Source: an uncultured Fidelibacterota bacterium (GTDB lineage: Bacteria > Fidelibacterota > Marinisomatia > Marinisomatales > UBA1611). Taken from it: a stretch of DNA of 64,000 nucleotides. The stretch is taken from positions 70,240 through 134,239 of the forward strand of contig CAJWHW010000001.1 in assembly GCA_913040915.1 (NCBI GenBank), read 5' to 3'. A program made the position numbers. Shown here one piece after another: positions 54,001 through 64,000 of this stretch. Within the stretch, counting starts at the first letter, position 1, and every line of letters starts with the position of its first letter.

Positions 54001-57000
54001 TCATAATAACTGGTGTCTCGAGTCGCCTCTCCAACAACAAGTACGTTTCCATCAGCAATTGCTATATCATAGGCAATGCCAGTACCAAATTCAGTAATGG
54101 GACCACCTTGTAGATCATGAATAGTATTATTTTCCCAATATTGGGGGAATGAACCCCCGGTAGTATAAGGGTTATTTGTGTCTTCGAACCAGTCTGTATA
54201 TCCTGCTAAATAAACGTCATCTCCATTAATTGATATACCATATGCACCAGCCCCATAGATATCCATATTTGATCCACCGAAAGGCATATCCGTTCTAGTT
54301 ATATGTCGCCAATAGCAAGCAGTAGGTGTATAACCAGCAAACCCAGATGTTTTTAAAACGTATCCAGCATAGTACCTCATATTACCATCCATGAAAGCAA
54401 TATCATATACCTCACCGTCACCATCAGTTGGTATCGATAAATTCGTTCTGTTATTTCCATCTTTCCAAAAGCAGGGGATATAATAGTGATGATTATTCAT
54501 ATAATACCCACCGATGTACACACTCCCATTATTTCGGACTCCTATTGAGAAAGCCTGTGAATCTCTATTAACGGTTAGATTAATTTTTTCCCCGTTTTCC
54601 CAATAGCAGGATCCATTATCAAACCAACCAGCAACATATATATTTTCTCCACTTACAGCAATAGCTTCGCCTTCACTGAAGTCGCCAGGTAAATCAAATC
54701 TTTGTTGATCAATCCAATAACAAGCACCGTCAGCAGTACCTGATGTATAAACTACTCCGTCAATTACCGTAATATCTGTAGCTGTATAACCACCAGGCAA
54801 TTCAATTCGTTCTCCATTAAGCCAATAGCAGGATGTCCATTCTCCGTTACTATTATAAGATTCACCAACAATGTAAATGTTTCTTCCTGGAATAGTACCG
54901 CCATTTTGATATTCACAGCTCCCATCATCAAATGTTGCATCACTGTTATAGTTCGTTGCTGTAATGTCTGTACATCCACAAATATTTTGGTCACCCCACT
55001 CTCCGGCACAATCTTCAGTACAATCATTAGAGAGGTCATCATCGCATGTGCCACAACTATCAACTAAAGCACTGCCACCACATTCATCCTTACAATCAAG
55101 ATATAAGCAACTATTATTATTAATTGTTGCATCTGAGTCATAGTTGCAAGCTTGATTATCTAAGCAGCCGAGTTTTTCTTGCTCTTCTTGATTATCATCG
55201 CATGAATAGAATGCCAAAGCAAAAAAAAATAATATTTGAAATCTATTTTTCATTATGAAGATTTATTTAATAATTCTAATTAATTGGTGGAGTTAAACGA
55301 ACAAGAGATATTATACCTCCGCTGTTCCCATCGATAAATCCGTAACCTCCTATTATAATATCTCCATTTTCAAGTTCAAATATTGACATATTTGCGTACC
55401 CGACATATTCCCTAAATATAGTTTCACCTTGATCATTAATCCATGTGAGGTTGGATCCTGCATCAATTAGATAATATCCACCTCTAGATGAAGGTATTAT
55501 ATCATAGTATCCGCTTACATTTACATCTACAATATTACAATCATTAAAAACACCACCGCCCGATGTATTCCTCTCTACCAGATATAAACTTCTCCAGCTA
55601 TTGCAATAGCCGGCACCTATATAACTCCCACCCGGTGTTTCATTTAGTGCATAGATTTCAGTACTGCCTGTTGACTGTATATTCTTTTTCCATATCTGTT
55701 GTCCATCCATATCTGTTTTAATCATGAGAGCTTTATAGTCGCCGTGTTGTGTACCTGTGTAACCACCTAAAACATAATTCCCATCTGCTGTCTCAATTAT
55801 TTCATTAATCTCATTTGCTGCAGAGCTACTATAAATTTCATGCCATATTAACTCACCTGTATTGCTGTATTTTCTAAGCATTGCCTTAGAATTGTTGCCG
55901 TTATCATTCCATGTCCCTGTAATTACATATTCTCCATCTGCTGTTTCAATAAAATCCCTTGCCCAATCATTATTTTCAGTCCCGCTATCAATCAACTCCC
56001 AGATAATGTTTCCAGACTCATCTGTTTTTAACAGATATAGATCAGGGTAGCATCCTGGCAGTGTATCGCACTCATAAAAGCCAACTGCAAAAAATCCGCC
56101 ATCAGATGTTTCCCGTACACTATACAATGCAGTGGAATTATCATAGACTTGGCTCCATTCCAAATCACCATTCTGATTTGTCTTGATTAAAAGTCCTGAA
56201 TAGTTTGATGCGCCTGCTATAATAAAACCAGAGTCGAATGTCTGTCTTACTCGCCAACTTTCATCACCCACACCTTCATAAGTTTTAACCCATTGAATTG
56301 TGATTGTGTCGCTCATGTTATATTGACAAGACCCGTCATCAAATGTTGCATCACTGTTATAGTTCGTTGCTGTAATGTCTGTACATCCACAAATATTTTG
56401 GCCACCCCACTCTCCGGCACAATCTTCAGTACAATCATTAGATGGGTTATTATCACAGACACCACAGTTGTCTATGTAGGCACTTCCACCAAAGACACCA
56501 GAACAATCTTCAATACAATCATTAGAGAGGTCATCATCGCACGTGCCACAACTATCAACTAAAGCACTGCCACCACATTCATCCTTACAATCAAGATATA
56601 AGCAACTATTATTATTAATTGTTGCATCTGAGTCATAATTGCAAGCTTGACTATCTAAGCAGCCGTGTTTTTCTTGCTCTTCACAACTCCAAAAAACGAG
56701 CCCAAATAATAGTAAATATTTCGAATATTGTGACAATTTCAGTATCAATTTTAATAGATCAATAAAAAAAAACCCACATGTGGGTTTTTTTTATGTTATA
56801 GACTTTCACATCATTGCCCAATTTTTCCATTCAGCATTTTCCGGAATCCTTTATTCACTGTAAAATAATGGCCTCTTTCCTGATGTATACTGGTAACTGT
56901 ATGGTGAAACTCATTAATGTGTTTAACGAATTCTTTTATATCAATTTCTACGTCAACTCCGTTATTATCTTTAATTACTACTTTATCTTTCGGCTTTATT

Positions 57001-63000: not shown

Positions 63001-64000
63001 TTCTCCAGATGAATCCAATCTATACAATTTTCTACCAGCTGATAAAATCATGTCTCCATTACCTATTGAGATAATGTTGCCACTTTTATTGATACTGCGG
63101 ACTTTCTTTTGACTACTTTGTGCGGAAGGGAGATTTACAGCTAAAACACCTTAGGCATACGCCTGTGAAAACAAAAAACCCCACGAATGTGGGGCTAGTG
63201 ATTGTATTATAAAATAAAAGTATAAGAGTAAAATCCTTATGAGAAAATTTCTTTAATAAGTCTTCTTGTAATAACAAATAGAAATAAACCAACAAATATT
63301 ATACCTATGGGTATTCCAATAATATTAAAGGAAGATTCCCACCTATAGTTGGGCTCACTATTGAATAATTCAAATGACTCATAAACTAACCAAATAAAAA
63401 TTATAAGAACATTAAAAAACAATACCCATAGTCCAATCTTTGTTGCTCTTTCTTCAGATTTAATGTAACTCTTATCCATATAGTGAGAGGGTTAAAAGTG
63501 TAAAAAATGAATATATATGATTTCAATTATATTCCCTAATTGAATCTACCCATCATCCCAGAAACAAAAAACCCAATATATATATAGGCTATTTATATAC
63601 CACATACACCCCACACATACCCCCCCAAGAATGAATAAAATTGATAAGTGCTTAAAATATTACAAAAAATAATATTACAATGTGTGTTTACCTTATTTTA
63701 GCATACACGCCCCCCATAATCCTAATCTTCTTGAGAAAAGTAAGTTGAGTTAATGCATTTTATTTTGATTCGTTCTGTGGGGGATAGGGATGTACATATG
63801 TACTTTTGATTCCATACGCCTATAGGGGTGTGTCCATCATTATCGTGTCCATTATTTGGGTATGATTTGAATACTTTTGAATAGATATGAAACTAAAAGC
63901 CCCCAGTAGTTACCGAGGGCTTTGTGAGAGGTAGTTGGTATTTTCCTCAAGTGATCCGGGTGCGACTCGAACGCACGACCAATGGCTTAAAAGGCCACTG

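Follow-up and report, generated by a model that had tools for sequence, protein, structure and literature searches.

The window analysed here, a stretch of 64,000 nucleotides from the genome of an uncultured Marinimicrobia bacterium (G000), ends in a tRNA island where accessory genes are separated by copies of a short intergenic repeat (Table 1). The survey's finding was of four copies of a terminator-promoter repeat at this locus, delimiting cassettes of one or two genes. The existence of the repeat is borne out, on the minus strand of the window and far above chance, with three copies recognized, two of them degenerate (copy 1 in its hairpin, and copy 3), and in addition a half copy reduced to hairpin and T6GTTT. 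Since the ABC transporter unit between two of the copies holds three genes, units do not always consist of one or two. Candidate joints from 63189-63197 to 63540-63543 were set aside, having sides under 30 nt and deriving from other organisms' copies.

Table 1. Features of the tRNA island at the end of the window
Feature	Positions	Strand	Basis
tRNA-Lys(TTT), 3' part, clipped by the contig end; island anchor	63952..64000	-	Rfam tRNA hit cut at 5'; anticodon read from sequence
Terminator hairpin behind the tRNA; type as at the integrative-element att site in L289; T-rich tail recurs at 62961-62974	63890..63923	-	
Short direct repeats and palindrome, of a kind common to integrative-element ends in relatives; putative arm-type-like remnants	63813..63850	-	
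Second short direct-repeat block, immediately upstream of copy 1; putative arm-type-like remnant	63600..63626	-	sequence
Repeat copy 1, with its type-A module intact (core 63543-63565) behind a degenerate hairpin and T6; start of the next ORF ~60 nt on	63538..63592	-	
80-aa membrane-type ORF, first cassette; one contig of run X10 lacks it and its flanks	63237..63479	-	
Half copy: consensus hairpin and T6GTTT, without promoter module	63169..63199	-	
Small hairpin with T-rich tail; tail forms the joint in the empty-site contig, where 62974 meets the tRNA terminator	62961..62990	-	
ABC transporter, three genes (solute-binding protein, permease, ATPase), flanked by two repeat copies	59000..62657	-	
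Repeat copy 2; ATG 5 nt behind TAGATT	58887..58944	-	
342-aa secreted protein, FlgD-Ig / Por secretion tail; cassette	57860..58888	-	
Repeat copy 3, degenerate; ATG 5 nt behind TAGATT	57786..57841	-	
325-aa ORF, cassette; no Pfam family; its signal-peptide-like start is of a kind often met behind the repeat	56811..57788	-	
Symmetric hairpin flanked by A- and T-runs and akin to that of the repeat; closes the last cassette, no promoter module	56764..56792	.	sequence

In its complete form the repeat is about 60 nt long and comprises a hairpin, a T6 run and GTTTN4GATGATGGGTAGATT, often with an ATG 5 nt on; the spacer, previously given as N5, is N4 in most copies. The T6-to-TAGATT stretch (23 bp) is near-invariant across families. 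The hairpin shows covariation (153 double, compensatory, changes vs. a shuffle maximum of 93), and when either DNA strand is folded only this hairpin of 6-7 bp forms. The same hairpin is also joined to a second promoter-like module (B), to several other right-hand partners and to integrative-element ends, so a single fixed element, as originally described, is not supported; one upstream gene stands before module A or B, and in 19 pairs one gene family lies behind A or B. GTTT follows 15 of 139 hairpin U-tracts in G000 (some of the 15 being copies), compared with 146 of 15382 T-runs. No Rfam family was found at the repeat, with tRNAs as the only hits in the window and in 14 loci. The best reading is a composite joint, which would terminate the preceding gene and provide a -10-type start signal for the following one.

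Both halves of this joint are predictions. The RNA runs screened contained 0.05 or less of the sequence words. The terminator half is supported by the hairpin covariation. The promoter half is plausible: TAGATT, the putative -10 element, fits the host's -10 box, and the host has such boxes 5-7 nt ahead of ATG (in G000, the end of TAnAnT lies 5-7 nt ahead of ATG in 51 cases vs. about 8 per position elsewhere). Against it, modules A and B have no -35 box at 16-18 nt from TAGATT, whereas G000 tRNA promoters do have one, and a sigma70 scan gave 44 sites vs. 45.6 by chance, none of them at the repeat. Without a -35 box, a promoter does not explain why the 17 nt ahead of TAGATT are nearly invariant. 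Promoters of the Bacteroidota type follow TTTG-N19-21-TAnnTTTG; the 3' box fits (TAGATTTG), but the spacing is wrong and TAnnTTTG has no peak before G000 genes, and this candidate was rejected. ATG occurs at +5 in 222 of 514 copies and GTG in 25 of 514, where translation may be leaderless. Of the 446 copies that could be tested, only 124 have an ORF of at least 60 aa beginning at +5, so that calling the cassettes mostly leaderless was an overstatement; 148 of the 446 have no ORF of that length within 60 nt.

The exact core is found in 33 of 54 family genomes; when up to 2 mismatches are allowed, 98 of the 401 genomes from the phylum (Marinimicrobia) match, and no reversed control does in either search. 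It was said to be order-wide, and 93 of 214 order genomes do match, but the distribution is patchy, with 2 of 37 genomes in the small-genome family f12 and 0 of 9 in family f11; beyond the order it reaches 5 of 69 genomes in other orders of the class and 0 of 118 in other classes. In G000, where copies are mostly decayed, a search with a profile built from 492 copies in other genomes detected 11 that include the right-hand module, together with about 6 half copies, rather than 19 full ones. The rule that copies lie on the strand of the next gene holds in all 15 matches at E <= 0.015; among the 29 matches that exceed the reversed-genome maximum it holds in 20, the weaker ones grading into ordinary terminators. 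One genome, G400, carries 86 copies and was examined as a candidate source of the enzyme; its copies, on contigs mostly under 1.3 kb, look pooled, and it was therefore used only for variants (79 of 514 copies). Module patterns matched 0, 0, 1 and 0 loci in viral contigs and the hairpin half matched 5. Our literature searches found no description of the repeat in cells.

Copies of the repeat mark the places where gene neighborhoods change. Among 452 copies, 410 pairs have upstream DNA in common, 123 have downstream DNA in common, and 8 both. From 731 junctions compared at a flank identity of at least 96%, 18 pairs share only the downstream gene, a gene at least 96% identical standing behind unrelated DNA, and 6 share only the upstream gene, which supports the view that the repeat delimits accessory genes whose order varies between genomes. 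Either a difference within the module or a change of partner at T6GTTT is seen in 13 of the 18 downstream pairs and in every one of the 6 upstream pairs. Between loci L105 and L107 a single gene has been replaced, with a flank identity of > 99%. The 222 downstream ORFs belong to 173 families, and 114 of them have a hydrophobic N-terminus vs. 361 of 1349 genome-wide. The genes gcvT and ftsK, reported to be adjacent in 5 of 5 relatives, are so at 21 of 29 relatives' loci; the insertion between them in G000 is real, and its repeat copy stops precisely at TAGATT, abutting the resident DNA upstream of ftsK.

Sequence variants within the repeat differ in their linkage to the two neighboring genes. 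Where disjoint pairs have the downstream gene in common (n = 26; flanks 3.4% apart), the per-site difference is 0.40 for the hairpin (random 0.46), 0.088 for the middle (0.147) and 0.006 for TAGATT (0.058). For pairs with a common upstream gene (n = 14; flanks 7.5% apart) the corresponding values are 0.20, 0.133 and 0.048; both sets are small and not independent. The hairpin goes with the upstream gene and TAGATT-ATG with the downstream one. The middle follows neither fully, showing partial linkage to the downstream side (p about 0.001); no single cut site fits such a split linkage.

The repeat is also linked to tRNA islands and integrative elements, a connection that the survey had missed. 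The arrays we mapped are situated at tRNA islands and contain remnants of elements as well as tRNA fragments, and some are cargo of small tyrosine-integrase elements. In 25 of 37 copy-tRNA pairs within 3 kb the tRNA is upstream on the same strand, and integrases adjoin the arrays at tRNA fragments; in relatives (L289, L313, L376-L380) a tyrosine integrase stands beside a tRNA 3' fragment with cargo, and G000 keeps remnants only. Copies occur at non-tRNA sites too (e.g. ftsK). The hairpin is of the local terminator style, serving as the tRNA-Lys terminator in G005, and hairpin-less entry sites, which have ~29 bp in common with other copies, originated at a number of unrelated element ends and native tRNA terminators, in every case at a T-run.

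No dedicated enzyme that tracks the repeat was found in the genomes compared. RecA is present in 5 of 5 genomes, DprA and ComEC in 2 of 5 and not in G000, whose only two tyrosine recombinases are XerC/D-like; resolvase and IS110 were found in 0 of 5. A 292-aa integrase, absent from G000 and with no viral relative found, was rejected as the dedicated enzyme because it sits at an attR tRNA fragment and was found in 19 of 201 order genomes. The integron integrase IntI is missing from G000 and present in 4 of 53 family and 37 of 233 order genomes; none of 6 mapped IntI loci has the hairpin or a genuine module copy, three have classical attC-type joints, and IntI was rejected on these grounds. An attC site is a long imperfect hairpin with conserved AAC and GTT ends, whereas the repeat folds only into its short hairpin, with the C of the 5' AAC at 35%; the original statement that the repeat is not an attC site and has no tie to an integron integrase stands. 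Reverse transcriptase (2 of 54 family genomes) and Y1 transposase (5 of 54) are both lacking in G000. Chi, KOPS and uptake sequences were dropped on copy number.

We consider it probable that the repeat is a cellular counterpart of the PeSL (promoter-early stem-loop) cassettes of phages, shuffled by homology-driven recombination. Many accessory genes carry the same 45-60 bp, so any two copies could exchange in this way, via RecA or strand annealing and anywhere from the hairpin to just before TAGATT. Such exchange would delete, insert and reorder self-contained expression units, perhaps by way of circles, as PeSLs do in T4-type phages. Arrays would begin at ordinary terminators or integrative-element ends whose own tails match the T6GTTT tail, for the most part in tRNA islands, and the small tRNA-targeting elements that carry arrays as cargo are the likely vehicle between cells. 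The entry sites themselves speak against homology-driven exchange, in that their constant T-run position and ~29 bp of common sequence, a length short for RecA, would be explained more simply by a site-specific enzyme. Further points against this reading are the partial linkage of the middle to the downstream gene, and that DprA, ComEC and the 292-aa integrase, each found in some genomes, were not found in G000.

In one such alternative, which we regard as unlikely, T6-to-TAGATT is the site of a site-specific recombinase (XerC/D, an off-target island integrase or an unrecognized enzyme), so that the repeat would be an integron analogue with its own attC-like site and a linkage later blurred by gene conversion. 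The near-invariance of the 23 bp, the recurrent T6GTTT joints with non-homologous partners and the ftsK insertion that stops exactly at TAGATT are consistent with this, as is the likeness of GTT at the joint and of GTAnnTTT to integron and CTnDOT core sites; yet two different joints would be required, middle variants fully follow neither flank, inverted arms round a 6-8 bp spacer are lacking in a sequence that folds only into a short hairpin, and the enzyme inventory (two XerC/D-like recombinases in G000, classical attC at the IntI loci, no resolvase or IS110 in five genomes) speaks against it. Rather unlikely, too, is a third cassette system besides integrons and pdif modules, in which a host or element recombinase would recognize T6-to-TAGATT, capture ready-to-express units at terminator tails and island ends and exchange them order-wide, possibly with hairpin-sharing myoviruses as carriers. 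It is quite doubtful that the repeat is simply punctuation of cargo, spread by duplication or conversion inside integrative elements, with gene order changing mainly by serial tRNA integration and deletion and the repeat as no more than a favored breakpoint: most joints lack tRNA fragments or arm repeats, near-identical genes stand behind unrelated neighbors with the change within the repeat, and neither the L105/L107 replacement nor copies at sites such as ftsK are expected, even if the tRNA setting of the mapped arrays, the use of the hairpin as an ordinary terminator and the decay of G000 copies agree with it.

Insertion at terminator U-tracts by an RNA or single-strand transposase (group IIC intron-like retrotransposition, or IS200/IS605/REP-like movement) would explain the T-tract on both sides of a unit and the insertions behind native terminators, but is largely refuted by the enzyme distribution; a promoter upstream of the start would also escape copying through RNA, and no Rfam family lies at the repeat, which makes this route very improbable. 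We give hardly any credence to an assembly artefact, with short-read assemblers linking unrelated flanks via the repeat. Many copies do lie near contig ends, the repeat has 50-100 times the depth of its neighbors, and the G400 copies sit on tiny contigs, but the repeat is shorter than a read, and long arrays lie within contigs of 28-125 kb, one of them in a 10-contig assembly. Flank-linked variants (hairpin upstream, +1..+8 downstream) would remain under misassembly, but diverged orthologues in different settings require real moves.

Marinimicrobia are abundant uncultured ocean bacteria, and no shuffling mechanism for their flexible genome was found in our literature searches. A shared 60-bp joint at which genes move with their own stop and start would be a simple means of diversifying secreted and surface proteins at the strain level, and would extend PeSL-type shuffling from phages to cells. 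The repeat could also serve as primer sites for amplifying the accessory gene pool from seawater, in the manner of integron-cassette practice, and would allow a direct test of the origin of self-expressing cassettes.

Among known systems, integrons and CALINs resemble the Marinimicrobia arrays in being co-oriented, with mostly single, small, diverse genes (GNATs, cupins, glyoxalases, unknowns) split by a repeat, and the hairpin-less first sites recall attI by position. The arrays differ in having no adjacent IntI, no long folded attC and no single fixed crossover point, and each unit seems to bring its own start and stop. In pdif modules an 11-6-11 dif-like site is accompanied by flanking modules in inverted pairs; the repeat does not match these, its copies being co-oriented and unlike dif, and a dif search in G000 returned only 2-mismatch noise, leaving no clear dif for comparison. 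Tycheposons, or tRNA-seeded additive islands, are small tyrosine-integrase elements of marine bacteria with tRNA fragments, degenerate remnants and accreted cargo at tRNAs (10.1101/2020.12.28.424599). The Marinimicrobia elements match their layout of integrase, tRNA fragment and cargo; the available parts of that paper describe no repeat formatting each cargo gene, and its main text contains 'Marinimicrobia' 0 times.

The closest likeness is to the PeSLs of T4-type phages, which (PMC2839356, PMC4122927) are terminator-promoter repeats between non-essential genes in hypervariable regions, with a strong sigma70-like promoter (-35 and -10), a Shine-Dalgarno sequence and mini-circles between neighboring copies, and with indels and replacements located at the repeat, crossovers at various points of the motif and no dedicated recombinase identified. 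Because shuffling terminator-promoter cassettes had thus been published, the novelty implied for the layout is not supported. The Marinimicrobia repeat shares the stem-loop terminator, predicted from sequence as a covarying hairpin with a U-tract, the gene gain, loss and replacement at variable points within the repeat and the lack of an identified dedicated recombinase. It differs in lying in bacterial chromosomes across an order rather than in lytic T4-type phages, in having no -35 and often an ATG 5 nt behind the -10, and in its two module families and tie to tRNA islands, known here from assembled contigs. What is new is the hairpin joined to a second module and to element ends, the split linkage, the arrays at tRNA islands, and an order whose integrons use attC and not this repeat.

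The repeat is real and broad, and the survey's finding of an order-wide terminator-promoter unit delimiting shuffled, mostly leaderless accessory cassettes is recast here in part. Across 452 distinct copies the ~60-nt unit opens with a poorly conserved stretch and continues with the hairpin CCCCAC-ATTC-GTGGGG and six T, followed in type A by the module GTTT-N4-GATGATGGGTAGATT, then 5 nt and often ATG; the spacer in this consensus is N4, not the N5 first described. The exact core was present in 33 of 54 family genomes and, with up to two mismatches, in 98 of 401 genomes of the phylum (order, 93/214; other orders of the class, 5/69; other classes, 0/118), the reversed control being 0 throughout. 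Among the 80 loci listed, many of which are titled 'bacterium' alone, records with an organism name belong to Marinimicrobia (Fidelibacterota), as had been reported, one 242-nt low-complexity contig excepted. A profile trained on other genomes' copies found 11 module-bearing copies and ~6 half copies, mostly decayed, in the genome under study (G000), so that the 19 copies counted earlier must include half copies; its best 15 hits all agree with the strand of the next ORF, while weaker ones merge with ordinary terminators.

Repeat copies in the window and satellite-like elements within arrays of other loci
Feature	Position	Strand
Repeat copy 1	63538-63578	minus
Repeat copy 2	58887-58944	minus
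Repeat copy 3	57786-57841	minus
Half copy, hairpin + T6GTTT	63169-63199	minus
Satellite-like element, ~5 kb, with tRNA fragments	L289:4800-9600	
Satellite-like element, ~5 kb, with tRNA fragments	L291:478-3400	
Satellite-like element, ~5 kb, with tRNA fragments	L313:6400-11300	

The hairpin varies as a structure: each of its six stem positions pairs in 196-220 of 291 distinct registered hairpins, and double changes number 153, a figure inflated by the relatedness of copies, where shuffles gave 72 on average and 93 at most. Judged by sequence, it is a terminator of the sort usual in this host. Its ending recurs in several G000 tRNA terminators, the consensus hairpin serves as the predicted terminator 3' of a tRNA-Lys fragment in a relative (G005), and in G000 GTTT follows 15 of 139 hairpin U-tracts, some of them repeat copies, versus 146 of 15382 T-runs.

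TAGATT, at the end of the module, agrees with the -10 boxes read 5' of G000 tRNAs; unlike those promoters, with their TTG-type -35 boxes at 16-18 nt, the repeat has no -35 box at that distance. Among 569 operon-start-like G000 genes, TAnAnT ends 5, 6 and 7 nt before ATG in 16, 21 and 14 cases versus ~8 elsewhere, and the leaderless layout is therefore native to the host. 'Mostly' is nonetheless too strong. Of 514 copies, 222 have ATG at +5 and 25 have GTG; among the 446 that could be tested, 124 open an ORF of at least 60 aa at this point, and 148 have no such ORF within 60 nt behind them; where ORFs start 14-39 nt on, a Shine-Dalgarno-like word occurs in 51 of 94 leaders versus 77 of 569 genome-wide, in slightly different windows. 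These counts and leaders make a predicted transcription start near +6 likely.

Module A is missing at 82 of 284 hairpin-plus-U-tract sites. Many of these run on into a second conserved module, B (37 copies, control 0; e.g. L290:6265-6308), which likewise ends in GTAGATT with ATG often next, and others continue into integrative-element ends. The same upstream gene stands before A at one and before B at the other of two loci (L282, L107) that are 98% identical as far as T6GTTT, and in 19 pairs the gene behind A in one member is related to the gene behind B in the other; thus, two joints are in use. A variant module with GGAGG instead of GGATG occurs in G400 (L478-L538), an assembly that looks pooled, where 29 of 53 copies with a second hairpin family have it versus 14 of 236 with the common hairpin, a tie that reads as lineage-level concerted evolution.

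That accessory genes are reshuffled at the repeat is confirmed by 731 junctions compared at flank identities of at least 96%, where the downstream side alone is common to 18 pairs and the upstream side alone to 6. Among all 452 copies, upstream DNA is common to 410 pairs, a count inflated by a 36-member family of secretion-tail paralogues, downstream DNA to 123 and both to 8. Between L105 and L107 a single gene is replaced within flanks >99% identical. The 222 ORFs lying downstream group into 173 families; of 150 representatives, 69 match no Pfam family, a FlgD-Ig/Por tail is present in 11, and none is a recombinase. A common signal-peptide-like N-terminus of the MxRYISLLLFIGL type (e.g. window position 57788) is found on many unrelated cassette proteins, and a secretion-tail C-terminus precedes 39 of 475 copies; homology arms may therefore include coding sequence, which would make domain swaps possible.

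Linkage within the repeat was read from 26 disjoint pairs with a common downstream gene, whose flanks differ by 3.4%, and from 14 with a common upstream gene (7.5%), small sets with overlapping members that include 79 copies from G400. Downstream-gene pairs differed per site by 0.40 (hairpin), 0.088 (middle), 0.006 (TAGATT) and 0.077 (+1..+8), where random pairs differed by 0.46, 0.147, 0.058 and 0.547; the upstream-gene pairs gave 0.20, 0.133, 0.048 and 0.545 for the same four segments. The middle is not hypermutable in place, because it differs by 0.018 in the four pairs with both flanks common. Rare middle variants were common to 3/76 downstream and 2/32 upstream cases. Of the 18 downstream pairs with flank identities of at least 96%, 13 have differences within the module, in some cases no more than 8 nt from where it ends; the six upstream pairs all either carry differences within the module or diverge at T6GTTT, and one pair diverges 5' of the hairpin. 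A single fixed cut, whether at T6 or at TAGATT, fits neither set, and exchange distributed over 40-45 bp fits both; the middle leans toward the downstream gene (p about 0.001), which counts against spread exchange.

Mapped arrays lie at tRNA islands, namely behind tRNA-His/Pro (L290, L313), around a tRNA-Ser end (L285), and at tRNA-Lys (window, G005) and tRNA-Met (L209); for 36 of 452 copies a tRNA on the same strand lies upstream in the same locus, though most loci do not extend far enough to show one. The first copy is often hairpin-less and joined by its T-run to a native tRNA terminator or to short direct repeats of the kind found at element ends. Besides a tyrosine integrase and an Arc-like repressor, the small elements inside arrays (L289, L291, L313) carry primase/AAA genes or replication genes of unknown type. 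A 292-aa integrase at a tRNA-Leu or tRNA-Ala 3' fragment is directed into the island, and at 4 of 5 examined loci the array's last hairpin and T6GTTT adjoin its terminator; it was found in 19 of 201 order genomes and not in G000. This tyrosine integrase (L376-L380, L381-L404) is near-identical across distant genera (97%, G019 vs G044) and defines minimal tRNA-Leu/tRNA-Ala elements of integrase plus cargo.

One contig (depth 10.9) from X10, one of four sequencing runs checked, links window position 62974 to the tRNA-Lys terminator and omits ~930 bp with copy 1, the 80-aa ORF of the first cassette and the half copy; in G000 this stretch has a T-rich terminator tail at either end. The gcvT-ftsK adjacency described for relatives holds in 21 of 29 loci, and the G000 insertion (sulfatase, yaaA) with a copy at the junction stands, stopping at TAGATT against the resident upstream region of ftsK. 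The gene upp (window 53154-53792) lies ~10 kb of island from the tRNA-Lys end in G000, whereas in G005:C32 it comes next after the tRNA-Lys fragment with its terminator; this query had no match in 4 of 5 relatives. Two tandem lipoprotein-like genes (window 53877-55253 and 55276-56748), with no Pfam family, have a common 196-nt, 94% identical N-terminal cysteine-rich block and unrelated C-termini.

We favor, as the probable explanation, a portable joint of terminator and promoter whose copies are exchanged through their homology; microhomology at terminator tails would seed new repeat sites, and tRNA-targeting elements would transport arrays from cell to cell. RecA was found in 5/5 genomes, DprA and ComEC each in 2/5, neither of them in G000. 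A site-specific enzyme acting at the repeat is considerably less probable. It is the strongest alternative all the same, since the 17 nt that lead up to TAGATT vary less than promoter function would demand and entry sites recur at the T-run; a divergent enzyme would also be compatible with a search of incomplete assemblies, in which the G000 tyrosine recombinases were two, both XerC/D-like. Resolvase and IS110 were each found in 0/5 genomes. Several family genomes encode XerD-like proteins (389-417 aa) that contain a long internal insertion of intein-like or other type (L365, L370, L371, L372).

Integron integrases are present in 4/53 family genomes (all four at contig ends) and 37/233 order genomes. 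The repeat is not tied to them, as the survey held: six mapped IntI loci have no repeat hairpin and no genuine module copy, and three have classical attC-type joints. Genuine integrons, IntI with classical attC cassettes, exist in Marinimicrobia (L361, L362, L363, L364, L434, L436, L439). RNA or transposase routes seem very improbable, with reverse transcriptase in 2/54 and Y1 transposase in 5/54 family genomes. We regard it as unlikely that the repeat is passive punctuation within element cargo, and as very improbable that the reshuffling is an assembly artefact.

Exact hairpin plus T6GTTT occurs in five viral contigs of myovirus-like phage (L546-L550); in L546, L548, L549 and L550 it lies between the tail sheath and tail tube genes as the predicted terminator behind the former, and L547:6001-6045 is a full type-A copy near a contig end that could be a chimera. 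A phage link or origin of the repeat is possible. In literature listings and the opening lines of abstracts, together with the three papers cited here, we found described neither such a repeat in Marinimicrobia nor PeSL-type joints in a cellular chromosome. PeSLs of T4-type phages are reported to be terminator-promoter cassettes with crossovers at several points inside, with mini-circles and no recombinase identified (PMC2839356), and such cassettes extend to other T4-like phages (PMC4122927). The Marinimicrobia repeat, also a terminator-promoter joint, is alike in mode of action, but it is cellular and lacks a -35, and is therefore not a PeSL member. It fails as an integron, and its setting is similar to tycheposon islands (10.1101/2020.12.28.424599). 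We read the repeat as a cellular version, new in this form, of a shuffling mechanism already known from phages.
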